A DNA stretch of 64,000 nt from Nitrospirota bacterium (lineage in GTDB: Bacteria; Nitrospirota; Thermodesulfovibrionia; Thermodesulfovibrionales; SM23-35), in contig JBFLWW010000002.1 in the NCBI GenBank assembly GCA_040757475.1, positions 23,818 through 87,817 on the forward strand, in the 5' to 3' direction. The notes under the pieces are model-generated. The model did not search any database, was not told the origin of the DNA, and was given only the letters and a program-made list of their open reading frames with translations. The position numbers and the translations under genes are program-made. Position 1 is the first letter of the stretch. Every line of letters begins with the position of its first letter. Of the stretch, positions 11,437 through 56,709 are shown piece by piece.

Positions 11437-13638
11437 ATGACTATGAAAGCGTTTAAAAAGCGTGTTATCTATTATCTGTTATCTGTTATTTTAATTTCAC
11501 TGTTCACTGTTCACTGTTCACTGTTCACTGTTTATGCTGAGACAAAAAAGGCTGATGAGAAGGTTACATTCAATTTCGTGGATGTTGACCTCGCCACTAT
11601 AACAAAATTTATAAGTGATATTACAGGGAAGAATTTTATCTTTGATGAGAGGGTGAAAGGCAAGATAACAATAATAGCCCCTTCTAAATTAAGTGTTGAC
11701 GATGCATACAATCTTTTCACATCCGTGCTTGAGCTTAAAGGCTTCACAGTTGTCCCATCAGGTGTTGACGCATATAAGATTATCCCTGCTATAGAGGCAA
11801 AACAGCGTGGGATACAGCTTGGTGCTGAGAGAGTGCCTGTTAATGAAAGCTACATAGCAAGACTTCTACCTTTAAAACATATATCCTCGGATGATGCCCT
11901 GAGATTTCTCCAACCCCTTATCTCAAAGGATGGTCATATATCCACATTCGGCCCTGGCAACCTTCTCCTTGTTGTTGACTCTGGACTGAATATTGAAAAG
12001 ATTCTTTCAATTATTGAGGCTATAGACCAGCCGTCAGCAAGAGAAGAACCTGAAATTGTCTTTCTCAAACATTCAAGCGCAGATGCCGTTGCAAAGATTC
12101 TCAATGAGGGTTTTGGAAAGGAAAGGACAAGGGCTGTTCCAGGCCAGCCACCACATATTGAGGAAGGCAGGGCAGTGGCTGACCAGAGGCTCAATGCTAT
12201 TGTCCTCTTTGGAGACAAAGGTGTCAGGGAATTCATGAAGGGACTGATAGCCCTGTTAGATGTGCCTTCGCCTGAGGCCCAGGGAAGGATAAATGTCTAT
12301 TTCCTTGAAAATGCTGATGCAACCGAGCTTGCAAAGGTCCTTGAGGGTATGCTGAAGGGTGCACAACCTGCAAGACAGGTCGCCCCTCCTGCACCGGGTG
12401 CTCCGCCAGTCACTCCCTTTGAGGCAGTTGGCGGCATAACCATAACACCTGATAAGGCCACAAATTCCTTTGTGATAGTTGCCTCACCAGCAGACTATCA
12501 GAACCTCTCACAGATTATAAAACAGCTTGATAAAAGGAGAAGACAGGTATTTGTTGAGGCAATGATTGTTGAGGCATCAATTGATAAGCTGAGGGAGTTG
12601 GGTGCAAAATGGAGAGCAACAGGAAGACATGAGGGAGAGCCTATAGTAATAGGCGGTTTCGGAACCATGAACCAGTCAGCACTTCAGTCTGTGATTTATG
12701 GGCTGACAGGTCTTACAGCTGGAGGAATGGGAAATTTCCTTGATATAAAGCTTACCACGCTTGATCCAACTACTGGTAAAGTTACAGAAGGCACTGTCAC
12801 AGTGCCTGGTTTTGCAGCCATCTTTAGCCTCAGTGAGTTTAAGGATGCTGTAAATGTCCTTTCAACCCCCCAGATTCTCACATCTGATAACAAAGAGGCA
12901 GAGATTGTGGTCGGTGAGAATGTTCCATTCATATCAAAAAGGGAAGCTGACCCTGCAAGAACCCTGTCTATGTTCACCACTATTGAAAGAAAGGATGTCG
13001 GAATCACGCTTAAAATAACCCCACAGATAACTGAAGGAGACTATGTCAAGCTTGATATATATCAGGAGATATCAGCGCTGGTATCTCCACCTGCTGGGCT
13101 TGAAGAGGCCATTCTTACAGGCGTGGGACCTACTACAACAAAACGCTCAACAAAGACATCGGTTGTGGTAAAGGACAGGCAGACTGTTGTTATCGGAGGC
13201 CTCATGCAGGAAAGGGATGCGGAGAACCTGACAAAGGTTCCGCTTCTTGGAGATATACCACTTCTTGGATGGCTTTTCAAATATAAGAGTGTCTCAAAGA
13301 AAAAGACAAACCTGCTTGTATTTCTTACACCTCATGTTGTTAAAAAGGCAGAAAATCTTGCGCAGATTACAAGAGATAAAGAGAAGGAGTTTGCAAGGGT
13401 GGAAAAGCAGTATAAAGAAGGAGAGCTTTTAATAAAGTTCAAAGAAGGGGTTTCAGAGGAGAGAGCACTATCAATAATCTCTGAAAAGGGTGCATCAGTT
13501 ATAACATTTATCGAGAACATTAAGGTCTATCATATAAAACTCAGAAAGAGGCAGGATGTAGAAGATGCCCTGAAGGAATTTTCTGAGATGCCAGAGATTC
13601 AATATGCAGAGCCGAATTATGTAATTAAAATAAAGTGA
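11437..13638 (+). CDS. gspD: Type II secretion secretin GspD with an extra C-terminal subtilase-propeptide (I9)-like domain
   Basis: 733 aa with N0-N3 domains and a secretin core (VPLLGDIPLLGWLFKYKS). The C-terminal 72 aa are not typical of secretins. The signal peptide is encoded by a heptamer array. Confidence 0.85.
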   Translation: MTMKAFKKRVIYYLLSVILISLFTVHCSLFTVYAETKKADEKVTFNFVDVDLATITKFISDITGKNFIFDERVKGKITIIAPSKLSVDDAYNLFTSVLELKGFTVVPSGVDAYKIIPAIEAKQRGIQLGAERVPVNESYIARLLPLKHISSDDALRFLQPLISKDGHISTFGPGNLLLVVDSGLNIEKILSIIEAIDQPSAREEPEIVFLKHSSADAVAKILNEGFGKERTRAVPGQPPHIEEGRAVADQRLNAIVLFGDKGVREFMKGLIALLDVPSPEAQGRINVYFLENADATELAKVLEGMLKGAQPARQVAPPAPGAPPVTPFEAVGGITITPDKATNSFVIVASPADYQNLSQIIKQLDKRRRQVFVEAMIVEASIDKLRELGAKWRATGRHEGEPIVIGGFGTMNQSALQSVIYGLTGLTAGGMGNFLDIKLTTLDPTTGKVTEGTVTVPGFAAIFSLSEFKDAVNVLSTPQILTSDNKEAEIVVGENVPFISKREADPARTLSMFTTIERKDVGITLKITPQITEGDYVKLDIYQEISALVSPPAGLEEAILTGVGPTTTKRSTKTSVVVKDRQTVVIGGLMQERDAENLTKVPLLGDIPLLGWLFKYKSVSKKKTNLLVFLTPHVVKKAENLAQITRDKEKEFARVEKQYKEGELLIKFKEGVSEERALSIISEKGASVITFIENIKVYHIKLRKRQDVEDALKEFSEMPEIQYAEPNYVIKIK
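11464..11533 (+). repeat. Heptamer lattice, 10 units (4x GTTATCT-type, 1 transitional unit, 5x ACTGTTC), encoding the gspD signal peptide
   Basis: Read directly from the sequence. It is in register over 70 nt and translates VIYYLLSVILISLFTVHCSLFTV. Confidence 0.9.
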
Positions 13639-16769: not shown

Positions 16770-17205
16770 AGCGGGATTCACGCTCCTTGAGCTGATAATT
16801 GTTATATTTATACTCTCACTTGTAATGGCTGTGGTCTTTCCATCTTTTTATGGAATTGTAGATGGAAGGCTTAAATCAGAGTCAGGTAAGATTGCGTCTT
16901 TATTAAGGTATCTGAATGATAGCGCAATCTCCAGAAAAGAAACATTTATACTTAAGATTAACCTTGATAGTAATACCTTCTTATGGGAAGGTCCTGATGG
17001 TAAAAGGTCAGAAAGTTTCAATGGTCTTTTAGATATTTTTACAACCTCAACAGGAAGTGTCTCAAGGGGTGAGGTGATACTTTCTTTCGGTCCCCTCGGC
17101 ATTCAGGAGAATCTCAGAATCCACCTGAGGGATAAAGATAAGGAAATGGCGGTTACGCTTAACCCGATGAGTGGAAGGGTAAAAATAATTCAAAGTTCAA
17201 AATGA
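16738..17205 (+). CDS. gspH: Minor pseudopilin GspH
   Basis: The leader is MQTLRTGSYSKAG/FTLLELIIV. It overlaps the gspG 3' end. Its C-terminal IQSSK* and its stop codon lie inside a repeat element. Confidence 0.6.
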   Translation: MQTLRTGSYSKAGFTLLELIIVIFILSLVMAVVFPSFYGIVDGRLKSESGKIASLLRYLNDSAISRKETFILKINLDSNTFLWEGPDGKRSESFNGLLDIFTTSTGSVSRGEVILSFGPLGIQENLRIHLRDKDKEMAVTLNPMSGRVKIIQSSK

Positions 17206-17265
17206 AAAATTCAAAATTAAGGAATTCCAAAATTTTTAATTTTAAATTTTTAATTTTAAATTCCC
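17189..17265 (+). repeat. 77-nt AT-rich inverted heptamer element (11 units, core TTAAGGAATTCC), copy 1
   Basis: TTCAAAG TTCAAAA TGAAAAA TTCAAAA TTAAGGA ATTCCAA AATTTTT AATTTTA AATTTTT AATTTTA AATTCCC. It spans the gspH stop and gspI start. Confidence 0.9.
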
Positions 17266-17609
17266 GCCCACATCAGGTGAGCGGGTTCGCCCTCCTCGAG
17301 GTTATGATTGCAGTTGGCATTGTTGGGGCCCTCCTTGTTACCCTCATATATACATTGAATTATAATCTTGGCATTGCTGAAAGACACGAGACTATTACTG
17401 TTGCAGCTATACTTGCAAGAGATAAAATTTCCGAGATAGAGAAAATGCCTGTTGATTCCAGAGGAGAATTCCCTGAACCTTATTCTGATTATCAATATGA
17501 GACCACAGTCAAAGAATCCGTATATCCTAACATATCAGAAATATCAGTTGTTGTTAGAAAAGGGAAAGAAGAGGTTAAACTCAGCGAATTAATTCAAAGT
17601 GCAAAATGA
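17202..17609 (+). CDS. gspI: Minor pseudopilin GspI (repeat-encoded long leader)
   Basis: ATGA overlap with the gspH stop. The cleavage motif is QVSG/FALLEVMIAVGIV. The first ~22 codons lie in the 77-nt repeat element. Confidence 0.6.
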   Translation: MKNSKLRNSKIFNFKFLILNSRPHQVSGFALLEVMIAVGIVGALLVTLIYTLNYNLGIAERHETITVAAILARDKISEIEKMPVDSRGEFPEPYSDYQYETTVKESVYPNISEISVVVRKGKEEVKLSELIQSAK

Positions 17610-17669
17610 AAAATGCAAAATTAAGGAATTTCAGAATTTTTAATTTTGAATTTTCAATTTTAAATTTCC
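17593..17669 (+). repeat. 77-nt AT-rich inverted heptamer element, copy 2 (about 88% identical to copy 1)
   Basis: TTCAAAG TGCAAAA TGAAAAA TGCAAAA TTAAGGA ATTTCAG AATTTTT AATTTTG AATTTTC AATTTTA AATTTCC. It spans the gspI stop and gspJ start. Confidence 0.9.
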
Positions 17670-25044: not shown

Positions 25045-26705
25045 AACTTAGAGAACTTCTTCACGGTTGTGATTATATTGACTCCTCACTTGTCACTTGT
25101 CACTTGTCACTCGATACGGACATCTCAGGTGTAGCTTATGATTCGAGAAAGGTGAAAGAAGGTTACCTGTTTGTGGCGATAAAAGGTGAGAAGCACGATG
25201 GCCATGATTTCATCGGTGATGCAATTAAGCGAGGAGCAGTGGCAATAGTGCATGAAAAAACAGTAACGAGTTACGAGTTACGAGTTACGAGTAAAGAAAA
25301 AGACTTGTCACTTGTCACTCGTCACTTGTCACTTATTCAGGTCAAAAACAGCAGAAAGGCACTTGCCTGTATCGCAAATAATTTTTACGGGAGGCCCTCT
25401 GAGAGGCTCACAGTTATAGGTATAACCGGTACAAACGGGAAGACAACGACAACATATCTCCTTAAATCTATACTCGAATCGTGGGGAAAAGAAATCGGTC
25501 TTATTGGAACAATACAATACATGATAAAGGACAAAAGTTACTCTGCATTATATACAACACCCGAGGCATTAGAGTTCCATGGACTTTTAAGAGATATGCT
25601 CTTATCAGGGTGCACGCATATCATATCAGAGGTCTCATCACACGCCCTTGCTCAGAGCAGAGTGGATGGGACTGTTTTTAAGACTGTAGCGTTTACAAAT
25701 CTCACAAGGGAACATCTGGACTTCCATAAAACTTTGGAGGATTACTTCAGGGCAAAGGAGAGACTGTTTAGAGAGCTTCTCGATAAGGATGGGACCTCTG
25801 TAATAAATCTCGATGACCTATATGGAAAAAGACTGATCTCTTCACTCAGCAGCGGGGTCCCCAGAAAGTCGCAAGACTTTCTGGGGCGTATATTAACATA
25901 CGGCCTTGAGACAGGAGCAGACATTATGGCGAGGGATATCAATAGTTCATTCAAAGGGTTGAGGTTCAAAATAGCATTCCGTGGCAGGAATTATAATATC
26001 TCATCTGCTCTGATGGGTCTACCAAATGTATACAATATTATGTCTGCAGCTGGGGCATCAATCTCGATAGGAGTTCCATGGGATATAATTCTTGAGGGTA
26101 TAAAAAATTTAGGCACTGTTACAGGCAGATTCGAAAAGGTTAATCTTGATCAGAATTTTCTGTGTATCGTTGATTATGCCCATACAGAGGATGCCCTCGA
26201 GAGGCTGATATATACAGCGAGGGAACTTATAAATAAGCCTTTAGTCAATAGTCATCAGTCATTAGTGAAAGACAGTAACAAGTTACGAGTTACGAGTAAC
26301 AAGTATGAAGATAAGAACTTGTCACTTGTTACTTGTCACTCGTCACCCCGTATTATTACTGTCTTTGGGTGTGGAGGAGATAGAGATCGCAGTAAGAGAC
26401 CGGGGATGGGTACAGTAGCAACAAGGCTTAGCGATTTTGTGATTATCACCTCTGACAATCCGAGGTCTGAAGACCCGAACAAAATAATTAGAGAGATTGA
26501 AGCAGGAGCTATAAGGAGAAACTATATAATCGAACCTGACAGAGCAGAGGCAATCAAAAGAGCTATTATGCTGGCAGGCGAGGGAGATATTGTCCTTGTT
26601 GCAGGCAAGGGACATGAGGATTATCAGGAAATTAAAGGTGTAAGGTATAGATTTAATGACAGGGAAATATTAGAAAAGGCGATCAAACAAAGAATAAAGT
26701 CGTAA
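25041..26705 (+). CDS. murE: UDP-MurNAc-tripeptide synthetase MurE, carrying three in-frame repeat insertions
   Basis: Contains DSRKV, GITGTNGKTTT, DYAHTEDAL and GCGGDRD. The ORF is 554 aa versus roughly 490-500 aa typical. Confidence 0.9.
   Translation: MKLRELLHGCDYIDSSLVTCHLSLDTDISGVAYDSRKVKEGYLFVAIKGEKHDGHDFIGDAIKRGAVAIVHEKTVTSYELRVTSKEKDLSLVTRHLSLIQVKNSRKALACIANNFYGRPSERLTVIGITGTNGKTTTTYLLKSILESWGKEIGLIGTIQYMIKDKSYSALYTTPEALEFHGLLRDMLLSGCTHIISEVSSHALAQSRVDGTVFKTVAFTNLTREHLDFHKTLEDYFRAKERLFRELLDKDGTSVINLDDLYGKRLISSLSSGVPRKSQDFLGRILTYGLETGADIMARDINSSFKGLRFKIAFRGRNYNISSALMGLPNVYNIMSAAGASISIGVPWDIILEGIKNLGTVTGRFEKVNLDQNFLCIVDYAHTEDALERLIYTARELINKPLVNSHQSLVKDSNKLRVTSNKYEDKNLSLVTCHSSPRIITVFGCGGDRDRSKRPGMGTVATRLSDFVIITSDNPRSEDPNKIIREIEAGAIRRNYIIEPDRAEAIKRAIMLAGEGDIVLVAGKGHEDYQEIKGVRYRFNDREILEKAIKQRIKS
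25080..25114 (+). repeat. Heptamer array (GACTCCT, 3x CACTTGT, CACTCGA) in the murE N-terminus
   Basis: Read directly from the sequence. It translates DSSLVTCHLSLD. Confidence 0.9.
25262..25338 (+). repeat. Composite inverted heptamer element (5x AGTTACG-type, spacer unit, 5x CTTGTCA-type) in murE
   Basis: 11 units on one lattice. It translates VTSYELRVTSKEKDLSLVTRHLSL. Confidence 0.9.
26241..26345 (+). repeat. Composite element of 15 heptamers = 35 codons in murE
   Basis: 4x TAGTCA-type, 5x AGT[TA]AC[AG]-type, a spacer, then 4x CTTGT[CT]A-type units. It translates LVNSHQSLVKDSNKLRVTSNKYEDKNLSLVTCHSS. Confidence 0.9.
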
Positions 26706-30182: not shown

Positions 30183-31265
30183 ATGCTATATAGCCTTCTT
30201 TACAGCATGCATGACTTGTTTTCACCCCTGAATGTGTTCAGGTATATCACATTCAGAACGTCGCTCGCTGTGTTTACAGCGCTGATGCTTGCATTGATAT
30301 TAGGTCCATCAATTATAGGCAGGCTCAAACAGTTAAATGTAACACAGCAGATAAGAGACGATGGTCCACAGATACATATGGGCAAAGCAGGCACTCCTAC
30401 AATGGGGGGGATCCTGATTATAATCTCTATCCTTCTATCTATCTTGCTATGGGGTGACCTGAGGAATATGTATATATGGGTTATGATTATTTCCCTCGCA
30501 GGGTTTGGTGGTATTGGTCTACTTGATGACTATTTGAAGATTGTAAAGAAAAACTCGAAAGGTCTGCGTGCATGTTATAAGTTTGGTGCACAGATAGCAC
30601 TTGCACTTTTAATTGGTATCTTTCTTTACATGAACCCTAAGGACCCTTACAGCGATGTTCTCAGCGTACCATTCTTCAAAAAATGGCTTTTTGATCTTGG
30701 GTGGTTTTATATACCGTTCTCGATTATTGTGATTGTGGGCTCATCAAATGCAGTTAATCTGACAGATGGTATTGATGGCCTTGCCATAGGGCTTGTGGGT
30801 ATAGCGGTCATGGCAAATGGGGTACTGGTTTATATATCAGGGCATAAGGGGCTTGCCCAGTACCTGCAGGTTCTCTATCTGCCAGGCACTGGAGAGCTTA
30901 CAGTTTTCTGTGGCGCTATGTTAGGTGCTTCTTTAGGTTTTCTCTGGTATAACTCATATCCTGCAGAGGTATTCATGGGAGATGTTGGTTCACTTGGACT
31001 TGGTGGTTCGCTCGGTGCGCTTGCAGTAATTACAAAGCACGAGATTGTTCTTGCAGTTGTAGGTGGGATATTTGTAATAGAGACCCTTTCTGTTGTCTTT
31101 CAGGTGGCATCATTCAGGCTGACCGGCAAGAGGATATTCAAAATGGCACCTATCCACCACCACTTTGAGTTAAAGGGATGGCCAGAATCAAAAGTTATTG
31201 TAAGGTTCTGGATAGTTGGAATTATACTGGCTCTGTTGAGCTTAGCAACATTAAAGGTGAGGTGA
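30183..31265 (+). CDS. mraY: Phospho-N-acetylmuramoyl-pentapeptide transferase MraY
   Basis: Contains GTPTMGG, NAVNLTDGIDGLA and HHHFE. Confidence 0.9.
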   Translation: MLYSLLYSMHDLFSPLNVFRYITFRTSLAVFTALMLALILGPSIIGRLKQLNVTQQIRDDGPQIHMGKAGTPTMGGILIIISILLSILLWGDLRNMYIWVMIISLAGFGGIGLLDDYLKIVKKNSKGLRACYKFGAQIALALLIGIFLYMNPKDPYSDVLSVPFFKKWLFDLGWFYIPFSIIVIVGSSNAVNLTDGIDGLAIGLVGIAVMANGVLVYISGHKGLAQYLQVLYLPGTGELTVFCGAMLGASLGFLWYNSYPAEVFMGDVGSLGLGGSLGALAVITKHEIVLAVVGGIFVIETLSVVFQVASFRLTGKRIFKMAPIHHHFELKGWPESKVIVRFWIVGIILALLSLATLKVR

Positions 31266-31267
31266 TT

Positions 31268-32281
31268 ATGAGAAAGTCATTAGTCATTAGTCATCAGTCA
31301 TCAGTCATAATAAGGAAAAGATTATTATTTATTGTAGTCTTTTTACTTCTCACTTCTCACTTTTCACTTTCAACTTTGTTTGCTGATGAGATCCATTCCC
31401 GTGCCGCCCTTGTTATGGATGCGTCAACAGGAAAGGTGCTTTATGCAAAAAATCTAAACCTTAAGCTTCCTCCTGCGAGTACAGCAAAGCTGATGACTGC
31501 TATTGTGGCAATTGAAAAGGCAGACCTCAATGATGTTATTACGATAAGCAAAAGAGCAGTCAGTGTTGCTCCAACAAAGGCTGGATTTAAGGCAGGAGAA
31601 AAGGTGACAATTGAGACGCTTCTTTATGCAGCGCTTCTCAGGTCTGCAAATGATGCTGCTACAGCCCTTGCAGAAGCTGTAGCTGGTTCAGAAGCTAAGT
31701 TTGTCCAGCTTATGAATAGAAAGGCGATTGCTATTGGAGCAAAGGATACAAAATTCATAAACCCACATGGACTTCCTGGCCCTGACCAGTATATTACAGC
31801 CCATGACCTTTCAAAGATAATGAGACATGCGCTCAAATATCCCAGACTAAAAGAGATCATCGGGACTCGTGTTGCAGAGGTCTCAATAAAAAGGGGGAAG
31901 TCCATATCTCTTGAAAACACAAACAGACTTTTGTGGGTTGACGAATACCTTGTGGGTGGTAAGACAGGATATACCCGTAAAGCAAGGCATTGTTTTGCAT
32001 GTGCCTGTAAACGCAAAAAGAATACAGTTGTAGTTGCCCTCCTCGGCAGTCCAAGCAGGGAAAACCTATGGAAAGAAGCAGAATTACTGATTGATAAGGG
32101 ATTCCAGATAATGGCAAATAAAGAAGAACCTGTCATCTATTTTACAAAGGCAGATTATGATGCACTTAATGTGAAGAAGGCATCCTATAAGAAAAGTTCA
32201 AAGTTCAAAAGTTCAAAGTTAAAGGCTTCATCACTTAAGTATAGGGTTGCAAAGAAAGGTGAGGATGGGAATAAAGGATAA
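31268..32281 (+). CDS. dacA: D-alanyl-D-alanine carboxypeptidase (S11, PBP5/6-like) with repeat-encoded signal peptide and tail
   Basis: Contains SxxK (ASTAK), SxN (SAND) and KTG (GKTGYT). ATG 31268 follows AAGGTGAGGTGA. Confidence 0.8.
   Translation: MRKSLVISHQSSVIIRKRLLFIVVFLLLTSHFSLSTLFADEIHSRAALVMDASTGKVLYAKNLNLKLPPASTAKLMTAIVAIEKADLNDVITISKRAVSVAPTKAGFKAGEKVTIETLLYAALLRSANDAATALAEAVAGSEAKFVQLMNRKAIAIGAKDTKFINPHGLPGPDQYITAHDLSKIMRHALKYPRLKEIIGTRVAEVSIKRGKSISLENTNRLLWVDEYLVGGKTGYTRKARHCFACACKRKKNTVVVALLGSPSRENLWKEAELLIDKGFQIMANKEEPVIYFTKADYDALNVKKASYKKSSKFKSSKLKASSLKYRVAKKGEDGNKG
31274..31308 (+). repeat. Heptamer array (3x AGTCATT, 2x AGTCATC register) at the dacA N-terminus
   Basis: aagtcat tagtcat tagtcat cagtcat cagtcat, which translates KSLVISHQSSVI. 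Confidence 0.9.
31340..31374 (+). repeat. Heptamer array (TTCTCAC/TTTTCAC) forming the dacA signal-peptide h-region
   Basis: tttttac ttctcac ttctcac ttttcac tttcaac, which translates FLLLTSHFSLST. Confidence 0.9.
32193..32221 (+). repeat. AAAGTTC array in the dacA C-terminal tail
   Basis: aaagttc aaagttc aaaagttc aaagtta, which translates SSKFKSSKLK. Confidence 0.85.
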
Positions 32282-33674
32282 AAAAGTAACCGTAGTAGGC
32301 CTTGCCAGGAGCGGCGTAGGCGCAGCAAACCTTTTATCAGAACTCGGAGCTGATGTAACAGTAACAGACAAAAAAACAGAATATGAATTAAAGGATTTTG
32401 TAAAAAAGCTTAATCCTTCTATAAAACGTGCATTAGGAGGACACCCGGAAGATATATTCACATCAGCTGATATGATAGTCGTCAGCCCTGGTGTTCAGCT
32501 TGACACTCCACCCATTACTAATGCAAAAGCAAAAGACATCCTAATAATTGGCGAGCTTGAACTTGCATATCAGATAATAAGTTCAAAGTTCAAAATTCAA
32601 AGTTCAAAGTTTCCAAAATTTTTAGCAGTAACAGGTACAAATGGGAAGTCTACTACTACAACATTACTCGATCTTATGCTAAAGAAATGTGGGTTCGAGA
32701 CCCTTTTAGGAGGGAATATAGGGAATGCCCTGACCTCGTCACTTCTCACTTCTCACTTCTCACCTGATTACATTGTTGCTGAGGTATCGAGCTTTCAGCT
32801 TGAGTCAATAAAGGATTTCAGGCCAAAGGGTGCTGCTATCCTTAACATTACTCCTGATCACCTTGACCGATACTACTCACTCGAAGAATACAGAGATGCA
32901 AAGGCAAAGATATTTGAAAACCAGCAGGAGGACGATTTTCTGGTAATTAATGCAGATGACCCTGAAACAATGAAAGTTCAAAGTTCAAAGTTCAAAGTTC
33001 AAAGTGAAAAACCAAAAGTCTTTTACTTTAGCCGTAAGAAAGAGGTCAAGGGTATTTATTTCAAAGATGGACGAATCTATTGTAATTTCCCTGACTCCTC
33101 ACTCCTCACTCCTCACTTCCCACTTATAAAGGCTGATGAGATAAAGATAAAGGGTGTCCATAACCTGGAGAATGCCATGGCTGCTTCGGCCATGGCTCTC
33201 CTTGCAGACTGCCCCCTAAAGGCAGTGATAGATTCCTTGAGAGAATTTCCTGGTCTTGAGCACAGGCTTGAATTTGTCAGGGAGATAAATGGCATCCGAT
33301 ACATCAATGATTCAAAAGGGACTAATGTAGGTGCAGTCATCAAGTCACTTGAAAGCTTTACGAAGCCGATTGTTTTAATCGCGGGTGGAAGAGATAAGGC
33401 AGGAGATTTTTCGTTATTGGGACATTTAGTGAGAGAAAGGGTGAAGGCAATTATATTAATTGGTGAGGCAAGTGAAAAGATAAAAAAAGCCCTCGGTGAC
33501 CTTACAGAGACAGTGATGGCAAAAGACTTAAGAGATGCTGTAATAATATCACATAACAAGGCAGTGAATGGCGATGTAGTCCTGCTTTCGCCGGCATGTG
33601 CAAGTTTTGACATGTTTATGGACTTCGAGGACAGAGGAAGACAGTTTAAAGATATTGTATGGAGTTTGAAATGA
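32265..33674 (+). CDS. murD: UDP-MurNAc-L-Ala--D-Glu ligase MurD with four in-frame repeat arrays
   Basis: Contains VVGLARSG, VTGTNGKSTT, EVSSFQLE and DSKGTN. The start is probably ATG 32265, overlapping the dacA end. Confidence 0.9.
   Translation: MGIKDKKVTVVGLARSGVGAANLLSELGADVTVTDKKTEYELKDFVKKLNPSIKRALGGHPEDIFTSADMIVVSPGVQLDTPPITNAKAKDILIIGELELAYQIISSKFKIQSSKFPKFLAVTGTNGKSTTTTLLDLMLKKCGFETLLGGNIGNALTSSLLTSHFSPDYIVAEVSSFQLESIKDFRPKGAAILNITPDHLDRYYSLEEYRDAKAKIFENQQEDDFLVINADDPETMKVQSSKFKVQSEKPKVFYFSRKKEVKGIYFKDGRIYCNFPDSSLLTPHFPLIKADEIKIKGVHNLENAMAASAMALLADCPLKAVIDSLREFPGLEHRLEFVREINGIRYINDSKGTNVGAVIKSLESFTKPIVLIAGGRDKAGDFSLLGHLVRERVKAIILIGEASEKIKKALGDLTETVMAKDLRDAVIISHNKAVNGDVVLLSPACASFDMFMDFEDRGRQFKDIVWSLK
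32581..32611 (+). repeat. GTTCAAA array in murD (before the P-loop)
   Basis: gttcaaa gttcaaa attcaaa gttcaaa, which translates SSKFKIQSSKF. Confidence 0.9.
32739..32766 (+). repeat. TCACTTC array in murD (after GNIGNAL)
   Basis: 3x tcacttc plus tcacctg, which translates SLLTSHFSP. Confidence 0.9.
32973..33007 (+). repeat. AAAGTTC array in murD
   Basis: 4x aaagttc plus aaagtga, which translates KVQSSKFKVQSE. Confidence 0.9.
33093..33125 (+). repeat. CACTCCT array in murD
   Basis: gactcct cactcct cactcct cacttcc cactt, which translates DSSLLTPHFPL. Confidence 0.9.
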
Positions 33675-34864
33675 AATATGATAAGTGGATGCTTTTTGTC
33701 ACAATTCTCCTTATAGGTTTTGGTGCACTTATGATATACAGCTCCACATCTGTTATCACACCTGTGCTTGCAAAGAAAAATGTCACAGAATTTTATTATT
33801 TCAAAAGGCATATGTTTACGATGCTTATCGGTTTTGGGATTATGTTTTTTGCCTACAGGCTAAAACTTTCTACAATTAAGAAGATGGCCGTGCCCCTCCT
33901 GATTTTTTCTTTTGTATTACTAATATTAGTTTTTGTGCCTGGCATAGGTGTCTCTGCCAATAATGCAAGGAGGTGGATAAGACTCTGGCCCTCTACATTC
34001 CAGCCATCAGAGCTTGTTAAGCTCTCCATGGTCATATTTCTTGCAAAGTATATGTCAATGTTAGAGTATAGAACAGACAGCCTTGTCTCTTTTATAAAAC
34101 CTGTTCTTGTAATGGCGGTATTTCAGGTGGTTTTTCTCAAACAGCCTGATTTTGGGTCTGTGATAAGCCTTATGCTTCTGACATTTATAATGTTATTTCT
34201 TTCAGGCATAAGGCTCAGATATCTTGCATATCTGTCAGTGCTTGCCCTGCCTATAATATACAAACTTATCATGGAGCCTTACCGCCTCAAAAGGGTTATG
34301 GCATTTCTCGATCCGTGGAAAGACCCTCAGGGAAGCGGATTCCAGCTTGTACAATCTTTTATAGCCCTCGGCAGCGGAGGGCTAACAGGCGTTGGACTTG
34401 GAAAGTCCAGACAGAAATTAGCCTTCCTACCCGAATCCCATACGGATTTCATATTCTCTCTAATCGGGGAGGAACTCGGCTTTATAGGTGTGCTGGTCGT
34501 TATAACGCTTTTCTTGTTCTTGTTTATCAAGGGGATATCCATTGCAAACAGGTCAAGGGACAAGTTTGTCTATTATCTTGCATTCGGACTTTCACTGATG
34601 ATCTCTTTGCAGGCGCTAATTAATTTTGCAGTTGCAACAGGCATGGTACCAACAAAAGGTTTGCCACTGCCGTTTATTAGCTATGGGGGTTCATCTCTCT
34701 TTGTGAATATGGCTGCTATAGGGATACTGCTTAATATATCGAAGGGAGAGGAGAACAGAAAGATTGCAGATATAGACCCAAAAATGATTGTGAGGAGGAA
34801 GGCCCGATTAAAAATTCAAAATGCAAAATTCAAAAATCAAAATTACGGAATTCCTTTATTTTGA
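33659..34864 (+). CDS. ftsW: Peptidoglycan glycosyltransferase FtsW (SEDS) with repeat-encoded C-terminal tail
   Basis: SEDS motifs are present (RWIRLWPSTFQPSE, LPESHTDFIF, PLPFISYGGSS). Confidence 0.9.
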   Translation: MEFEMKYDKWMLFVTILLIGFGALMIYSSTSVITPVLAKKNVTEFYYFKRHMFTMLIGFGIMFFAYRLKLSTIKKMAVPLLIFSFVLLILVFVPGIGVSANNARRWIRLWPSTFQPSELVKLSMVIFLAKYMSMLEYRTDSLVSFIKPVLVMAVFQVVFLKQPDFGSVISLMLLTFIMLFLSGIRLRYLAYLSVLALPIIYKLIMEPYRLKRVMAFLDPWKDPQGSGFQLVQSFIALGSGGLTGVGLGKSRQKLAFLPESHTDFIFSLIGEELGFIGVLVVITLFLFLFIKGISIANRSRDKFVYYLAFGLSLMISLQALINFAVATGMVPTKGLPLPFISYGGSSLFVNMAAIGILLNISKGEENRKIADIDPKMIVRRKARLKIQNAKFKNQNYGIPLF

Positions 34865-34888
34865 ATTTTTAATTTTAAATTTTAAATT
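34808..34888 (+). repeat. AT-rich inverted heptamer element (core TTACGGAATTCC) at the ftsW 3' end
   Basis: About 12 units in register. The ftsW stop (34862-64) lies inside the element. The left arm translates RLKIQNAKFKNQNYGIPLF*. Confidence 0.9.
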
Positions 34889-34894
34889 GAAAGT

Positions 34895-36025: not shown

Positions 36026-37437
36026 TGTTTGAGAGATACAGAGTAATACATTTTGTTGGAGTAGGTGGCATAGGGATGTCAGGTATTGCAGAACTCCTTC
36101 ACAACCTCGGCTATGAGGTTACAGGCTCAGATTTAAGGGATTCAGAGACAACAAGGAGATTGAGAGAATTAGGCATGAAAGTCTATATAGGCCATAAGGC
36201 AGAGAATATAGACAATGCCCATGTGGTGGTTGTATCCTCAGCAGTCCTGGGTAATAATCCTGAAGTGCTTGAGGCAGAGAGAAGATCTATACCTGTAATT
36301 CCGCGTGCAGAAATGCTCGCAGAGCTGGCAAGACTGAAATACGGGATACTTATTGCAGGTGCACATGGCAAGACGACTACAACCTCATTAATATCCACTA
36401 TCCTTGCACATGGAGGCTTTGACCCTACAGTTGTTATTGGTGGAAAACTTAAGGGATTAGGTAGTAATGCAAGGCTTGGTGAGGGAAAATTTCTTGTTGC
36501 AGAGGCTGATGAGAGTGACGGTTCATTCCTGAAACTCTCTCCAACTATTGCGGTTGTCACAAATATAGACAGGGAACACATGGATTTCTTCAAGACAATG
36601 GATTCATTGAAAGAGGCATTTCTATCCTTTATGAATAAGGTCCCATTTTATGGTGTATCAATAGTGTGCATTGAGAACGAACATCTCCGTGAACTTTTAC
36701 CATCTATCCACAGGAGATACATCACTTATGGACTCTCTCAAGATGCGGAGCTTTGTGCAACAAATATAAAAAGGGGCTTTATGTCAATGAGTTTTGATGT
36801 GTTGCATAAAGGAGAAAACATTGGGAATTTTACTATCCCTGTCATAGGGATACATGATGTCCTTAATAGTCTTGCGAGTATCGGGACAGCATTAGAACTC
36901 CAGATGGATGTATCGAAGATAAAGGATGCATTGAAGGGTTTCAGCGGTATACAGAGGAGGTTTGAGTTCAAAGGGGAAGCTGGAGGCATAAGGGTATTCG
37001 ATGATTACGGTCACCACCCCACAGAGGTAGAGGCAACCTTGAAGGCAGGGAAGGAAGGACTCTTAAATACTCAGAAGTCAAAAGTCGAGGGTCGAGAGTC
37101 AGGAAGATTATTTGTCATTTTCCAGCCTCATAGGTATACGAGGACAAGAGACCTGATGCAGGAGTTTTCTCTTTCATTTAAGGATGCAGATTCTCTCGTC
37201 CTTCTGGATATTTATTCTGCAGGAGAGAAACCTATAGAAGGCGTAAGCTCAGCAACATTGTGTGAAAGTATTAAAAAAGCAGGTCATAAAAGTGTTGTGT
37301 ATATGAAAGATAGGAAAGATGCGATAGGACATATTATCTCAAATATACGTGGGGGCGATGTACTGCTTACGCTTGGTGCTGGAGATATATGGAAAGTGGG
37401 GGAAGAGATACTCAATAAGTTAAAAATGAAGGGTTAA
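36025..37437 (+). CDS. murC: UDP-N-acetylmuramate--L-alanine ligase MurC
   Basis: Contains HFVGVGGIGMSG, GAHGKTTTTS and FQPHRYTRT. Confidence 0.9.
   Translation: MFERYRVIHFVGVGGIGMSGIAELLHNLGYEVTGSDLRDSETTRRLRELGMKVYIGHKAENIDNAHVVVVSSAVLGNNPEVLEAERRSIPVIPRAEMLAELARLKYGILIAGAHGKTTTTSLISTILAHGGFDPTVVIGGKLKGLGSNARLGEGKFLVAEADESDGSFLKLSPTIAVVTNIDREHMDFFKTMDSLKEAFLSFMNKVPFYGVSIVCIENEHLRELLPSIHRRYITYGLSQDAELCATNIKRGFMSMSFDVLHKGENIGNFTIPVIGIHDVLNSLASIGTALELQMDVSKIKDALKGFSGIQRRFEFKGEAGGIRVFDDYGHHPTEVEATLKAGKEGLLNTQKSKVEGRESGRLFVIFQPHRYTRTRDLMQEFSLSFKDADSLVLLDIYSAGEKPIEGVSSATLCESIKKAGHKSVVYMKDRKDAIGHIISNIRGGDVLLTLGAGDIWKVGEEILNKLKMKG
37073..37100 (+). repeat. Degenerate period-7 array (NNNNGTC x4) inside murC
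   Basis: agaagtc aaaagtc gagggtc gagagtc, which translates QKSKVEGRES. Confidence 0.65.
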
Positions 37438-37461
37438 AAGTGAAAAGTGAAAAGTTAAAAG
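37434..37461 (+). repeat. TGAAAAG array (reverse orientation of TCACTTT) at the murC/murB junction
   Basis: ttaaaag tgaaaag tgaaaag ttaaaag. It contains the murB GTG start and translates VKSEKLKE. Confidence 0.85.
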
Positions 37462-41657: not shown

Positions 41658-41685
41658 TTTTTTATAGAAATAACATCAGAATATT

Positions 41686-41736
41686 AAAAATTGCAAATTG
41701 AAAATTTTAAATTTCAAATTTAAAATCTAAAAATTC
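41686..41736. repeat. AAATTNN heptamer array between 5S rRNA and tRNA-Ala
   Basis: aaattgc aaattga aaatttt aaatttc aaattta aaatcta aaaattc. Confidence 0.8.
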
Positions 41737-42059: not shown

Positions 42060-42848
42060 CTATCGTCGAAAGTTCCAATGAGGTGAAAGATACTTTTTAG
42101 CCTCAAGCTCCTGTGCAAAAGATACCTCCTCCTGAGAAGGAGATGAAGGTGTAAACCTTATATCAAAGGCTTCTTCAAAAGAAATCCTGATAGCATTTTT
42201 TAGTTCATCAGGGTTTAAATTAGGTAATACCTCTTTTAATCCAGTAATTGCCTCTCTTATCCCATGAGTGGACTCGAGTTTGAATATCTTAATCATCTCA
42301 TCCTTATCGAGGATATATGGGATGGACCCCTGCTGAAGCAGGCCATCAGGCCAGCGTTTCTGTGCAGAGCCTATAACCTTCTTATTGTTTATAGTAATCT
42401 CTCCGTATGATGTGGATTGAAAACACAAAGGACTTTTGGAGTAACGAGTTTTTCTGAGCAATTTTAACTCTGGCGAGAGACCAATTTTTGATAGTGCAAG
42501 ACTCAGGGCAGTGCTAATCTTTTTATAGCTGTCGAGTAATCCCTTTGAGAATAGCCCCCATGTTGTTTTCACAGAAAAACTGTATGTGATATCATGGCTA
42601 TGCAGAATTGCACGGCCTCCAGTAAGCCTTCTGACAATTGGAATCTGTTTCTCAATGCAGTAATCAATGTCAATATCACTGATCTTCTGAAAGCATCCGA
42701 GGCTCACTGATAGTATATTCCATCCATAGAGCCTCAATGTTGGAGGTACATTATCCTTTCTGACAGCAGTTGTAATCGCCTCATCCAGAGCCATATTGCA
42801 GGCTGCGCTGCGTGACCCAGTATCAATAAAACGCCAGACATCAGTCAT
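42060..42848 (-). CDS. Lipoate-protein ligase / octanoyltransferase family protein (BPL/LPL catalytic domain only)
   Basis: 262 aa. Contains RRLTGGRAILH and the catalytic Lys block KKVIGSAQKR. Confidence 0.75.
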   Translation of the reverse strand: MTDVWRFIDTGSRSAACNMALDEAITTAVRKDNVPPTLRLYGWNILSVSLGCFQKISDIDIDYCIEKQIPIVRRLTGGRAILHSHDITYSFSVKTTWGLFSKGLLDSYKKISTALSLALSKIGLSPELKLLRKTRYSKSPLCFQSTSYGEITINNKKVIGSAQKRWPDGLLQQGSIPYILDKDEMIKIFKLESTHGIREAITGLKEVLPNLNPDELKNAIRISFEEAFDIRFTPSSPSQEEVSFAQELEAKKYLSPHWNFRR

Positions 42849-42918: not shown

Positions 42919-43569
42919 ATGCTTATTCGTATGCCTTTTACAGTTTGGTTTTTTTCACTTCTCACTTTTCACTTTTCACTTTTTGCTGTCTCTTTTGCTG
43001 CCTCATCCGTTGAGGAGGACATCGCAAGAATCCAGAAGGCTTATGATAGCATTAAAGACATTAAGGGAAGTTTTGTACAAAAGAGCCATATAAAGGACCT
43101 GAAGCGAACAGATACTTATAAAGGAGAATTCTTTATAAAGAGGCCACAGAAGATGAGGTGGGAATATAAAGGCGATAAAGCTCAGGAGGTAATCATCAAC
43201 AACAAGGATATCATAATATACCAGAAGGAAGAAAGGCAGGCGTTTAGAGGTAAATTTGATAGAGATACATATGGTCAGGCACCCATAGCCCTCCTCAGCG
43301 GATTCAGAGACATACAGAAGGAGTTTGTTGTATCAAAGAAAAATAGCACTCTTCTGCTTAAACCAATAAGGCCGATGGGAAATATCCTGTCTATTAAGAT
43401 AGAGCTTTCTGATAATAAATTCCCTATCAACTCATTTACCATAAACGACACGCACTCAAATTTGATAAAGATTATGCTGAAGGGCGTGAAGATAAATACA
43501 GGCTTGAAGGATTCTATTTTCGAGATTTCATTACCAGAAGACACGAAAATAGTGGATGAATTTCTTTAG
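42919..43569 (+). CDS. lolA: LolA-like periplasmic lipoprotein carrier
   Basis: Signal peptide, then IKGSFVQKSHIKDLKRTDTYKGEFFIKRPQKMRWEY, a LolA-type pattern. The signal-peptide h-region is a heptamer array. Confidence 0.6.
   Translation: MLIRMPFTVWFFSLLTFHFSLFAVSFAASSVEEDIARIQKAYDSIKDIKGSFVQKSHIKDLKRTDTYKGEFFIKRPQKMRWEYKGDKAQEVIINNKDIIIYQKEERQAFRGKFDRDTYGQAPIALLSGFRDIQKEFVVSKKNSTLLLKPIRPMGNILSIKIELSDNKFPINSFTINDTHSNLIKIMLKGVKINTGLKDSIFEISLPEDTKIVDEFL
42951..42985 (+). repeat. C(T)TTTCA heptamer array forming the LolA-like signal-peptide h-region
   Basis: tttttca cttctca cttttca cttttca ctttttg, which translates FFSLLTFHFSLF. Confidence 0.9.
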
Positions 43570-48122: not shown

Positions 48123-49214
48123 GTGATGTTAATCCTTGGAATAGATACCTCCTGTGATGATACATGTGCGTCAGTCGTCGAAGACGGGGTCAGAATAATC
48201 TCCAATATCGTCTCGACCCAGACAGAGATACATAAGAAATACGGTGGCATTGTGCCTGAGCTTGCATCAAGAAGACACATAGAGATGATATGGCCTGTTG
48301 TTGATGAGGCAGTGAAAGGCGCAGGGATTGAACCTGAAGACCTGTCTGCTATAGCAGTATGCCATGGTCCAGGACTGATAGGTTCCCTCCTCATAGGCTG
48401 TTCCTTTGCAAAGGCGATATGCTATTCAAAAAATGTCCCTCTTGTTACTGTAAACCACCTTGAGGGTCATATATTCTCTTGTTTTTTAAGGGAAGGGGGT
48501 TTCATGGAGGAAACTCCGTTTCCCCCATGCACTCCTGAATTTCCATTCCTATCCCTCATCGTCTCAGGAGGCCACACATGCCTCTACAGGGTTGATGGCT
48601 TTGGTAGATATAGAGAACTCGGCAGAACACGGGATGATGCTGCAGGTGAGGCATATGACAAGGTCTCAAAACTCCTTGGTCTCGGATACCCTGGCGGCCC
48701 TGTTATAGATAAACTCGCACAGGATGGAAACCCTGATGCAGCAGATTTCCCGAGGCCGTATCTGCCTGAATCCTTTGATTTCAGCTTCAGCGGACTTAAA
48801 ACCGCAGTGCTGAATTTCGTAAAAACAACAGTCATTAGTCAACAGTCATTAGTCAGTAGTCAAAAAACCAGTGACCAATGTCCAATGACCAATGACCAAT
48901 CCCACTTGTCACTGGCGGATATTGCTGCATCATTTCAGGCATCTGTAGTAGATGTACTTGTAAAGAAAACAGAATGGGCAGTAAAAAAAGAACGGATAAA
49001 AAGGGTTGCCCTCTCAGGTGGAGTCTCTGCAAACAGTGAATTGAGAAAAGGGATGAAGGGAATGGGTGATGCGATAGGAGTGGAGATATTTATACCTCCT
49101 GTATCATTGTGCACAGATAATGCTGCCATGATTGCTGGAGCTGGATATCATCATTTCAATGCCGGCAATATTGCAGGGCTTGATCTCAATCCACAGGCGT
49201 ATCTGCCGCTATAA
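48123..49214 (+). CDS. tsaD: tRNA N6-adenosine threonylcarbamoyltransferase TsaD with an 84-nt in-frame repeat insertion
   Basis: Contains ILGIDTSCDDT, HLEGH, SGGHT and FSFSGLKT. The ORF is 363 aa versus about 335-340 aa typical. Confidence 0.9.
   Translation: MMLILGIDTSCDDTCASVVEDGVRIISNIVSTQTEIHKKYGGIVPELASRRHIEMIWPVVDEAVKGAGIEPEDLSAIAVCHGPGLIGSLLIGCSFAKAICYSKNVPLVTVNHLEGHIFSCFLREGGFMEETPFPPCTPEFPFLSLIVSGGHTCLYRVDGFGRYRELGRTRDDAAGEAYDKVSKLLGLGYPGGPVIDKLAQDGNPDAADFPRPYLPESFDFSFSGLKTAVLNFVKTTVISQQSLVSSQKTSDQCPMTNDQSHLSLADIAASFQASVVDVLVKKTEWAVKKERIKRVALSGGVSANSELRKGMKGMGDAIGVEIFIPPVSLCTDNAAMIAGAGYHHFNAGNIAGLDLNPQAYLPL
48827..48910 (+). repeat. 12-unit (84 nt = 28 codons) composite inverted heptamer element inside tsaD
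   Basis: aacagtc attagtc aacagtc attagtc agtagtc aaaaaac cagtgac caatgtc caatgac caatgac caatccc acttgtc. Confidence 0.9.
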
Positions 49215-51426: not shown

Positions 51427-51434
51427 AACTAAAT

Positions 51435-51525
51435 TAGAAATGAGAAATGGGAAATGGGAAGTAGGAAATGGGCGGTTAAGATTTTACTTCTTACTTCTCA
51501 CTTCTTACTTCTTACTTCTCACTTT
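51435..51525 (+). repeat. 13-unit composite inverted heptamer element (GGAAATG-type arm / TTACTTC-type arm) downstream of radA
   Basis: tagaaat gagaaat gggaaat gggaagt aggaaat gggcggt taagatt ttacttc ttacttc tcacttc ttacttc ttacttc tcacttt. Confidence 0.9.
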
Positions 51526-52099
51526 ATTCTCCTGTGCAGCACCACGGGTGGAGATACCCGTATATGAAGGAGTTGATGTAAAGGATGTCCTTTCTTCGAA
51601 AAACCGTATTTCAGCCATAGAGACCACATTTTCCATCATCTTTGAAAAAAATGATACTGAGATAAGAGGAGATGCAACACTGAATATCTCCCGTAATGGA
51701 AACCTGAGCCTGCGTGTCTATTCCCTTGGATTTCTTGCACTTGAACTCACATCTGATAATGGCATTATAAAAAGCAATCCGAGTCTTGACAGGAACAAAA
51801 ACGCAATCCTTACATCCGGCCTGAAAGACTGCCTTTTCTGGTGGGATATAAAAGACTTTGAGATTGATGAAAGAGATGATACCTACATCCTTAAAAATCT
51901 TTCGAGAAAGATATGGATAGACAGAAAAACAATGCTTCCCCGGAAACAGATAATCTCCCTTGAAGATGGCAGAGAATTAAAGGTGTATTATGAAGGTTCT
52001 GAGAAGGAAGGTGATATCTGGTATCCTGCAAAAATGAGGATAGAACTCTCTAAATATTCTGTGACATTGAGGATTAAGGGTATATCATTCACTATTTAA
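51440..52099 (+). CDS. Outer-membrane lipoprotein, LolB/DUF4292-like (putative); signal peptide wholly repeat-encoded
   Basis: Starts MRNGKWEVGNGRLRFYFLLLTSYFLLLTLFSC with an LFSC lipobox. The family call is weak. Confidence 0.45.
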   Translation: MRNGKWEVGNGRLRFYFLLLTSYFLLLTLFSCAAPRVEIPVYEGVDVKDVLSSKNRISAIETTFSIIFEKNDTEIRGDATLNISRNGNLSLRVYSLGFLALELTSDNGIIKSNPSLDRNKNAILTSGLKDCLFWWDIKDFEIDERDDTYILKNLSRKIWIDRKTMLPRKQIISLEDGRELKVYYEGSEKEGDIWYPAKMRIELSKYSVTLRIKGISFTI

Positions 52100-52903
52100 A
52101 CCGAGGTCTACTGCTACAGTCTTTATTATCGAACCGTTTATAACCTCTGTTTTAAACAGATAACCCTCAAGTAGTGCATTATCACAGATAGTGTTTATCA
52201 GCCTCGGCACACCTTTTGAGTAGTTGTAAATAAGCATTATAGCCTCATCCGAGAATATATCTCTATTGCATCCCGCAATTCTAAGTCTGTGTTTTATGTA
52301 ATCCCTTGTATTATCCTCAGAGAATGACTTCAGTTTTACTCTAACAGCCACCCTCTGTTTAAGAGGTTCATCTAAAGAGAGGACATCTTCAAGCTCTGTC
52401 AGGCCAAAAAATACAAAATTTATCATCTTTCCTTCAGAGATCTCCATATTCAGAAGCCCCCTGAATTCCTCCATAAGCTCCCTCGAGCTCAGCATCTGGA
52501 CCTCATCAATAAGCACAACTGCTGTTTTCCCATGTTCATTTATCTCGTGTAGCCTTTTATACATCTGACTGAGAAGTTCAATCTTATTTTCCTTCAGGTC
52601 CTTTACACCAAGCTGTATCGCAAATTTTCTGAGCAGCCACTCTGCGCTGACAGACGAGTGAATTACTACAAGGAGTGCTGCCTCATATATTTCCTCATTC
52701 AACTCCTCAAGGAGCCTCCTTGCAAGTGTCGTCTTTCCGGTCCCTGCATCCCCTATAACAACAGCAAGGCCTTTTTTGGTATCTATGGCATATCTCAACC
52801 TTATAAGGGCCTCTGAGTGCTGGATACTGTTATAATAAAACCTGCTGTTAACCACATTCGAGAATGGGTGTTCTTTAAGGTTATAGTATTCTAAATAGTC
52901 CAT
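52085..52903 (-). CDS. ExeA/GspA/MshM-like AAA ATPase
   Basis: Starts YYNLKEHPFSNV. Walker A is GDAGTGKTT and Walker B is VVLIDEVQ. 272 aa. Confidence 0.75.
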   Translation of the reverse strand: MDYLEYYNLKEHPFSNVVNSRFYYNSIQHSEALIRLRYAIDTKKGLAVVIGDAGTGKTTLARRLLEELNEEIYEAALLVVIHSSVSAEWLLRKFAIQLGVKDLKENKIELLSQMYKRLHEINEHGKTAVVLIDEVQMLSSRELMEEFRGLLNMEISEGKMINFVFFGLTELEDVLSLDEPLKQRVAVRVKLKSFSEDNTRDYIKHRLRIAGCNRDIFSDEAIMLIYNYSKGVPRLINTICDNALLEGYLFKTEVINGSIIKTVAVDLGLNSE

Positions 52904-52909
52904 ATCTTC

Positions 52910-54814: not shown

Positions 54815-54877
54815 CTGTATATTATTGAAAGGTATCACAATCAGCAACAAGTGTCAATAATCAGCTCTTAACTATTC

Positions 54878-56612: not shown

Positions 56613-56622
56613 ATATACTAAA

Positions 56623-56709
56623 TGCAAAATTCAAAAAGCAAAATTCAAAAATCCAATTCAAGATTTAAAATTTCCTTAATTTTGCATTTTTCATTTTTAA
56701 TTTAAAATT
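56623..56709. repeat. AT-rich inverted heptamer element in the glyA-nrdR spacer
   Basis: Positions 56673-56696 are the exact reverse complement of 17604-17627 (24 nt). Confidence 0.9.

Follow-up and report, generated by a model that had tools for sequence, protein, structure and literature searches.

Translated heptamer arrays in dacA and other genes of a Nitrospirota lineage: frame-specific absence of stop codons and turnover at fixed sites

How can a tandem array of seven-nucleotide units, whose period is not a multiple of three, lie inside a housekeeping gene and leave its reading frame open? The question is raised by dacA in a 64,000-nucleotide stretch of a Nitrospirota metagenome-assembled genome (MAG; contig JBFLWW010000002.1), hereafter the window, whose coordinates are used throughout. 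This gene (31268..32281, +) encodes an S11 D-Ala-D-Ala carboxypeptidase of 337 aa (Pfam PF00768 Peptidase_S11, E = 2.4e-58, with the domain beginning at residue 39). Its ATG (31268..31270, +) follows the mraY stop codon TGA (31263-31265, +) and a Shine-Dalgarno-like AAGGTGAGGTGA located in the final mraY codons (31254..31265, +). The coding sequence then begins with two arrays of period 7. The first, A1 (31275-31308, +), consists of AGTCATT, AGTCATT, AGTCATC, AGTCATC and AGTCAT(A) (4.9 copies, Tandem Repeats Finder (TRF) score 54) and encodes KSLVISHQSSVI. The second, A2 (31339-31377, +), is built from units of the TCACTTC/ACTTCTC type, namely CTTTTTA, CTTCTCA, CTTCTCA, CTTTTCA and CTTTCAA (4.6 copies, TRF score 43), and is read in the dacA frame as VFLLLTSHFSLSTL, or as (V)FLLLTSHFSLSTL with the preceding valine. 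An original prediction made from the bare sequence had described the gene as an S11 carboxypeptidase starting with two heptamer arrays, of which the TTCTCAC-type one forms a hydrophobic core, and both statements are borne out by the arrays, the Pfam match and the translation. It had also derived the first 36 codons almost entirely from the arrays; the two arrays are real, but only about 26 of the 39 signal-peptide codons belong to them.

The region 31268..31384 (+) comprises these 39 codons, MRKSLVISHQSSVIIRKRLLFIVVFLLLTSHFSLSTLFA / DEIHSRAALVMD, and the product displays the features of a Sec-type export signal, with a basic n-region, a hydrophobic h-region and small residues at positions -3 and -1 (MRK…RKR / LLFIVVFLLLTSHFSLSTLFA / DE…). 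Distant relatives without arrays (L007, L019-L031, L009 and L010) carry an ordinary signal peptide, MRSKKGHTKVFLYGLACFASIFLPFLSTAFA|ETINARAAVVME, whose h-region ...FLPFLSTAFA|ET aligns with …FSLSTLFA|DEIHSRAALVMD of the window, placing the probable cleavage site at LFA|DE. Downstream of 31268, no other in-frame ATG, GTG or TTG occurs until a TTG at about 31376, and a start at that codon would remove the DacA signal peptide. Because the signal peptide of the array-less relatives aligns with this segment and no alternative start precedes the h-region, A1 is assigned to the n-region and A2 to the h-region of the predicted export signal. The same arrangement of mraY, dacA, Shine-Dalgarno motif, ATG and two heptamer arrays recurs at nine more loci, drawn from Nitrospirota/Thermodesulfovibrionia MAGs and metagenomes. 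In the nine array-bearing orthologous dacA loci, the AAGGTGAGGTGA-type motif followed by ATG is kept and the reading frame is open despite turnover of the units. The dacA arrays are not assembly artefacts, since L001, an assembly from another sample in which the gene caller chose the same start and the same 337-aa product, is 99.97% identical to the window over 6.7 kb, with both differences lying outside arrays. An Rfam scan returned only 5S rRNA and tRNAs, with no family overlapping any array, and a promoter and terminator scan around dacA gave nothing informative.

Selection against in-frame stop codons inside these translated arrays is supported by a comparison of reading frames. For 10 genic arrays from the window and related loci whose majority unit holds a sense-strand stop triplet, an idealised array was built from the majority unit, and each predicted stop triplet was scored as kept or lost in the real sequence. 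None of the 13 in-frame stops is kept, versus 30 of 39 in the other two frames of the same arrays and 29 of 43 (67%) in intergenic arrays (Fisher P = 8e-7 for in-frame versus out-of-frame and 1e-5 for in-frame versus intergenic sites), while out-of-frame and intergenic retention do not differ significantly (Fisher P = 0.46). This amounts to a miniature version of the comparison between genic and intergenic arrays that had been suggested as a check, and its outcome rejects mutational bias. The weight of the test comes from the evidence for translation of the arrays (the conserved Shine-Dalgarno motif and ATG, and the signal peptide) and from the internal arrays, whose frame is fixed by homology on both sides.

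At the level of single codons, it had been claimed that the C in units 3 and 4 of A1 averts a TAG in both. This is true of unit 3, where codon CAG (31295..31297, +) would become an in-frame TAG with the T variant; it is the sole stop-relevant substitution in A1. In unit 4, however, the C at 31302 occupies the second position of codon TCA (31301..31303, +), and the T variant would give TTA, which encodes leucine and is stop-neutral. The choice of GTCATTA as the consensus was itself arbitrary, the variable position being T in two units, C in two and A in one, and the TRF consensus being the stop-free AGTCATC; it can equally be said that the TAG-creating T variant is present in A1 only at out-of-frame places. 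The parallel claim for murB, in which a unit TTAAAAG replaces an in-frame TGA, has held. An array of the (AAGTGAA)n type (37417..37461, +) spans the murC/murB junction, with the murC stop TAA at 37435-37437 and the murB GTG at 37440. The murB sequence starts GTG AAA AGT GAA AAG TTA, and the TTA at 37455-37457 has a T at 37456, in the third unit, where the G of the majority unit would create TGA at 37455. The relative L008, which is about 70% identical, shares this array and its TTA and conserves the downstream peptide KLK(E/D)IFS; as in the window, the array provides the stop codon of murC as well as the GTG of murB. The same logic recurs in dacA of L008 (CAGAATA in place of CAGTAGT, which would yield TAG), in dacA of L002, in tsaD, and in murD of L004 and L005. 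In tsaD, paired arrays lie within the gene (48826..48900, +; translation and Pfam), and the in-frame (ACCAATG)n unit is TCCAATG, turning TGA into TGT.

Avoidance of stops also extends to the choice of the unit itself. Across the window and related loci, about 31 genic arrays are built of units that are stop-free on the sense strand and carry stops on the antisense strand, with five arrays showing the reverse, in line with the stop-free orientation or variant that marks TAACTGA-type heptamer repeats inside open reading frames (ORFs). Unit choice is also under selection, and stop-free derivative units make up whole arrays, not just patched in-frame copies. Many arrays are paired, a purine-rich array being followed by a quasi-complementary pyrimidine-rich one. 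In 10 of 11 paired arrays, a perfect complement of the 5' array would bring in sense-strand stops; 9 of the 10 actual 3' arrays are free of them. Where the arms match best, the departures from complementarity sit on bases that would form a stop (TAACT to TCACT, for instance), and pyrimidine-rich (T-type) units depart from canonical TAACTGA at its two stop-forming A positions. These few and partly non-independent pairs suggest that stop avoidance reaches from single patched units to whole recoded arrays.

The arrays at dacA belong to a larger population specific to one period and one lineage. The window holds 23 arrays at period 7, as compared with 0-2 at each of the remaining periods between 4 and 15, and shuffled sequences yield none; 49 arrays occur in the window and loci L002-L008, with none in outgroup loci. 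Of the 35 window arrays examined, only 5 fall entirely between genes; the majority are contained in long ORFs, including murD, murE, murB and tsaD, with further genic arrays in an ABC ATPase gene. For MurD, MurE and TsaD, homology confirms that the arrays are internal. A perfect period-8 array, (AAGTTCAA)x4 at 63368-63400, encodes VSSKVQKFKSSK in an ABC-transporter ATPase gene and is the window's only strong array of that period. Four arrays are located inside murD (32579-32611, 32739-32763, 32973-33019 and 33090-33124, together 32579..33124, +). Alignment with solved MurD structures shows that three of them are loop insertions of 10, 6 and 9 residues, whereas one overwrites native residues without changing the length; in-frame MurD homology continues on both sides, and orthologs are hypervariable at exactly those four sites. 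Six further arrays lie inside murE (25086..26346, +; translation, Pfam and folding), and an (AAAGTTC)n array encodes KSSKFKSSKLK in the C-terminal tail of DacA, just upstream of murD (32192..32224, +; TRF and translation). Genes on the minus strand (944-5140, 42060-42848, 52085-54850 and 57335-59633; about 11.5 kb) contain no period-7 array, although about 6 would be expected from the density of about 0.5 arrays per kb in plus-strand genes; gene content, a strand bias of the repeat process or chance could each account for this scarcity.

Array-encoded signal peptides are not confined to DacA and also occur in three other exported proteins of the window, each recognised by translation and Pfam. 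In the GspD secretin, (TGTTATC)n and (TTCACTG)n arrays (11463..11532, +) encode the signal peptide VIYYLLSVILISLFTVHCSLFTVYA|E. A (TCACTTT)n array (42952..42983, +) gives the signal-peptide core FSLLTFHFSLF of LolA, and (AAATGRG)n and (TTACTTC)n arrays (51431..51524, +) form the N-terminus …FYFLLLTSYFLLLTLFSC of a LolA-like lipoprotein. The last of these arrays (51484-51524) has an exact 21-nt super-period, (TTACTTC TTACTTC TCACTTC)x2, which fits a frame-preserving duplication of three units. A general 21-nt super-period in genic arrays was considered and rejected, since identity at lags of 7, 14 and 21 is 0.912, 0.910 and 0.912, and the longer period is seen in only a few arrays (51484, 37417 and 26274).

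Comparison of related genomes indicates how these arrays change over time. Between the window and its sister genome L002, the 3' end of mraY and the mature part of dacA are 95-96% identical, as compared with 57% across A1 and 76% across A2, and L002 carries (AAGTTWA)n at the site of the window's (AGTCATY)n. Over 8 kb of this comparison, nearly all large differences fall at array sites; L002 differs by +6 and +48 nt at the (AAAGTTC)n array of the DacA tail, and all length differences within genes are multiples of 3, none being a multiple of 7. The signal-peptide segment of L002, about 130 nt long, resembles that of L004 (92% identity across the A2 half), whereas the flanks of L002 and L004 are only 73-77% identical; the same incongruence between flanks and arrays is displayed by the sister pair L003 and L015. 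Two A1 types, AGTCRTY and AAGTTNA, do not follow the phylogeny of the flanks in two sister pairs (31208-31450 versus L002, L004, L003, L015 and L006), which suggests recombination, long-lived alleles or recurrent switching. On short time scales the arrays are stable: no indels separate the window from L001 or L004 from L016 (100% identical), and no 7-nt indels were found among L005, L017 and L018 in the dacA region or between L017 and L018 in their first 1.9 kb. L005 and L017 (98.8% identical) differ by one cluster of substitutions in the dacA arrays, with similar clusters outside arrays as well, which points only weakly to an acceleration specific to arrays. The original prediction had proposed purifying selection for read-through after array formation. 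The selective part is upheld by the 0 of 13 retained in-frame stops, whereas the order of events, in which an array forms and is then repaired, is unsupported because L002 has entirely different units between flanks that are 95-96% identical; arrays appear to be swapped or switched wholesale at fixed sites rather than formed once and patched.

Other inserts and hairpins were noted in the course of these comparisons. In murE, the window has a perfect 12-bp stem with a 4-nt loop at 25859-25886 (CCCCAGAAAGTC GCAA GACTTTCTGGGG), exactly where L002 has (AAACTCA)5, so that each genome bears a different kind of insert at this site. L002 also contains a 30-nt GC-rich palindrome (…GGCCTCGCTNNGCGAAGCGGGGC…) twice in 8.3 kb, at 927-949 and 7868-7890, sites that align to about 26250-26340 and about 33105 of the window; each copy lies in frame within a heptamer array of murE or murD, with an array unit on both sides. 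Neither the window nor any of the other 36 loci contains this palindrome. A family of AT-rich hairpins with (AATTCAA)n and (AATTTTR)n arms occurs at 17187-17262, 17603-17667, 34807-34892, 41683-41735, 56620-56703 and 61357-61484, several members having a central AAGGAATTCC (GGAATTCC centre). These hairpins are situated at gene junctions, namely at ftsW/murG, the pseudopilin genes, 5S rRNA/tRNA, and upstream of the ORFs at 56714 and 61490. Two pseudopilin ORFs seem to begin within such a hairpin (MKNSKLRN… and MKNAKLRN…), and the TTG immediately preceding the GG|F prepilin site would be a plausible start as well. In L035 (Ga0209048_10008560), the dacA homolog is apparently split by a multi-kb insertion with a transposase-like ORF, which is unrelated to the arrays.

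The account that probably fits these observations best is that a process specific to this Thermodesulfovibrionia group makes and homogenises short tandem 7-nt arrays, many of them inside genes, and that translated arrays are filtered for an open frame. At dacA, both arrays after the start would be translated, A1 into most of the Sec n-region and A2 into the hydrophobic core. Because 7 is not a multiple of 3, the units would be read in all three frames and a stop triplet in the unit would come into frame at every third unit, so that only frame-keeping arrays with a non-stop variant at that place, or with a stop-free unit throughout, could be maintained in a working gene. Such variants would be the C at 31295 in dacA and the T at 37456 in murB. 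The underlying molecular process may be slippage, template switching or gene conversion, and no function of the arrays beyond tolerance would be needed. Several points count against this explanation. Simple slippage leaves unexplained both the unrelated units in sister genomes with 95-96% identical flanks and the frequent quasi-complementary pairing. Moreover, the in-frame count is conditioned on an open ORF, which makes the statistic partly circular for N-terminal arrays; orthologous arrays are non-independent observations; and, with all arrays in plus-strand genes, a strand-specific mutational preference for pyrimidine-rich units is not fully separable from selection. Indeed, the stop-avoidance result is nearly tautological, since an existing ORF cannot hold an in-frame stop. 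The coincidence at dacA alone has a probability of about 0.5 (with two of the four A1 junctions altered, the in-frame one is included with P = 0.5), and the corresponding value for murB is 1/3. These values, together with the identical C without stop effect in unit 4 and the heterogeneity of intergenic arrays, which keep 67% of their predicted stop triplets, would suit an explanation by chance or mutational bias, in which unit heterogeneity is neutral and its match with in-frame stop positions accidental. The contrast of 0/13 with 30/39 and 29/43, as well as the conservation of the murB variant in L008, makes such an accident very improbable.

A possible, if doubtful, alternative concerns the origin of the arrays and is compatible with selection: paired arrays may be the arms of small in-frame hairpin cassettes, akin to Rickettsia palindromic elements or to the cyanobacterial small dispersed repeats nested in heptamer arrays. 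Recombination or transposition would insert or exchange them at fixed, permissive sites, with stop avoidance as a filter on cassette survival. The murE pairs 25262-25334 and 26274-26346 are quasi-complementary and fold as regular period-7 hairpins (z = -5.0 and -4.1), and cognate arms are complementary at a mean of 5.3 of 7 positions, as compared with 4.6 for non-cognate arms and 4.1 for random heptamers. The L004-like signal-peptide segment of L002 within window-like flanks, the similar incongruence of L003 and L015, the GC-rich palindrome nested twice in L002 arrays and the recurrence of AT-rich hairpins with the GGAATTCC centre at gene junctions are also in its favour. At dacA itself, A1 pairs with A2 in L002 (z = -2.4) and L008, but in the window the two arrays are complementary at 4 of 7 positions, the random level, with pairing limited to AGT with ACT triplets and fold z values of -1.4 to -2.7. 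A conserved A1-A2 RNA hairpin was accordingly rejected after folding of nine 5' regions, in which pairing was present in L002 and L008 and not in the window (z = -1.4). Furthermore, a Pfam scan of ORFs in the window gave no transposase, and one of the murD arrays replaces native residues at unchanged length. The mosaicism might also have arisen by convergence towards a small set of preferred units, or from mixed strains assembled into one MAG. A fuller version of this idea, rather unlikely as it stands, would have actively exchanged, lineage-specific in-frame cassettes (period-7 quasi-palindromes, sometimes with nested GC-rich hairpins) replaced at fixed sites in essential genes by recombination or template switching, co-opted as signal-peptide cores in DacA, GspD, LolA and the lipoprotein, and with 3' arms recoded from TAACT to TCACT. 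That the arrays are untranslated, forming a 5' leader or a regulatory RNA or DNA element with the dacA start further downstream, is improbable. Most TAACTGA arrays of Beggiatoaceae are intergenic and located just upstream of start codons (PMC4679880), many window arrays lie at gene junctions, and a downstream start is plausible for the two pseudopilin genes at 17202 and 17606; for dacA, however, no start codon intervenes before about 31376, A2 itself is the hydrophobic core required for export of a periplasmic enzyme, the ATG, Shine-Dalgarno motif and open frame are kept in 10 loci despite unit turnover, and neither an Rfam family nor a conserved RNA structure covers the arrays. A phase-variable contingency locus, in which gain or loss of 7-nt units would toggle dacA, has the classical layout of a non-triplet tandem repeat at the 5' end of an ORF. 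Short-term stability, with no copy-number difference between the window and L001, between L004 and L016, or in the first 1.9 kb of L017 and L018, argues against it, as do the presence of the same kind of arrays in murD, murE, murB and tsaD, typically essential genes, and the restriction of in-gene indels between the window and L002 to multiples of 3; toggling of dacA is hence hardly credible.

Stop avoidance is expected by itself and adds little, and its logic for heptamer repeats in ORFs is already in the literature (MacGregor 2015, PMC4679880). The surrounding context is more interesting. The arrays of this lineage differ from those of that study in their host phylum, in being mostly intragenic and translated, within housekeeping genes and signal-peptide regions, and in often forming inverted pairs. 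Core cell-wall and tRNA-modification enzymes of these Nitrospirota contain translated 7-nt arrays, which also form the hydrophobic cores of several export signals, and unrelated arrays occupy the same sites in genomes with about 95% identical flanks. If this pattern holds genome-wide, it would provide a natural experiment on how much repeat-derived sequence proteins tolerate and on how reading frames and a repeat process of non-triplet period can coexist, and it would extend the unexplained distribution of heptamer repeats (cyanobacteria, Beggiatoaceae and some Bacteroidetes) to another phylum.

Among known systems, the closest comparison is with the TAACTGA heptamer direct repeats of marine Beggiatoaceae, some cyanobacteria and some Bacteroidetes (MacGregor 2015, PMC4679880). 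In that system, stop codons restrict which way round the repeats lie within ORFs; the stop-free reverse direction gives LSVISYQ, and a few sets within ORFs are located in variable loops (PMC4679880). The window shares with it tandem 7-nt units in 2-6 copies, many sets per genome, and a frequent location at gene starts and junctions. In L005, L017 and L018 the dacA array is exactly (TCAGTTA)n, an element of the same kind, and the DacA N-terminus, MKKLSVISYQLSV, matches LSVISYQ; the window units AGTCATY and TCACTTC are related to, though not identical with, TAACTGA/TCAGTTA. All but 25 of the 169 BOGUAY sets are intergenic and one unit dominates (PMC4679880), whereas the window sets are mostly intragenic, with many related units often arranged in quasi-complementary pairs. 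Nitrospirota is not among the host phyla in that study, and no report of heptamer repeats in Nitrospirae or Thermodesulfovibrio was found in the literature searched. MacGregor linked an alternate RNA polymerase beta-prime subunit to heptamer repeats (PMC4679880); a candidate for such an alternate RpoC in the window, the 1397-aa ORF at 944-5137, was rejected, as it is a BcrAD/DUF2229 CoA-enzyme activase. The arrays resemble the heptamer class in being tandem 7-nt repeats, in forming many dispersed sets specific to period 7 and in their stop-free orientation or variants inside ORFs, and depart from it in not being mainly intergenic.

Cyanobacterial short tandemly repeated repetitive (STRR) heptanucleotides, reportedly described by Mazel in 1990, are likewise dispersed families of heptamer arrays, described mainly as intergenic markers, and several window units share AGT/ACT with them, as does CAACAGT at 48826. 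Small dispersed repeats (SDR) are said to be embedded in STRRs (attributed to Elhai, 2008), a relation resembled by the small GC-rich palindrome inside the heptamer arrays of L002. To our knowledge, STRRs have not been described as translated into signal peptides or enzyme loops. With contingency loci the dacA arrays share a non-triplet tandem repeat at the 5' end of an ORF, but they differ in the lack of copy-number polymorphism between near-identical genomes, in the housekeeping nature of the genes and in a frame that is always preserved. Rickettsia palindromic elements (RPEs) are in-frame selfish DNA in protein-coding genes, 100-150 bp long, dispersed and conserved in sequence. The window elements differ from them as 20-45 nt arrays of variable 7-nt units without a conserved element body, and dispersed copies of a conserved element sequence are limited to the AT-rich junction hairpins and the L002 GC-rich palindrome. 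A two-arm hairpin like that of RPEs is seen in part, in the murE pairs and in dacA of L002 and L008, while the window dacA pair stays at the random level. The arrays share with RPEs the frame-preserving insertion relative to orthologs, as in the murD inserts of 10, 6 and 9 residues. In both cases short repeated DNA lies in frame in housekeeping genes, is tolerated in surface loops and is kept open by selection.

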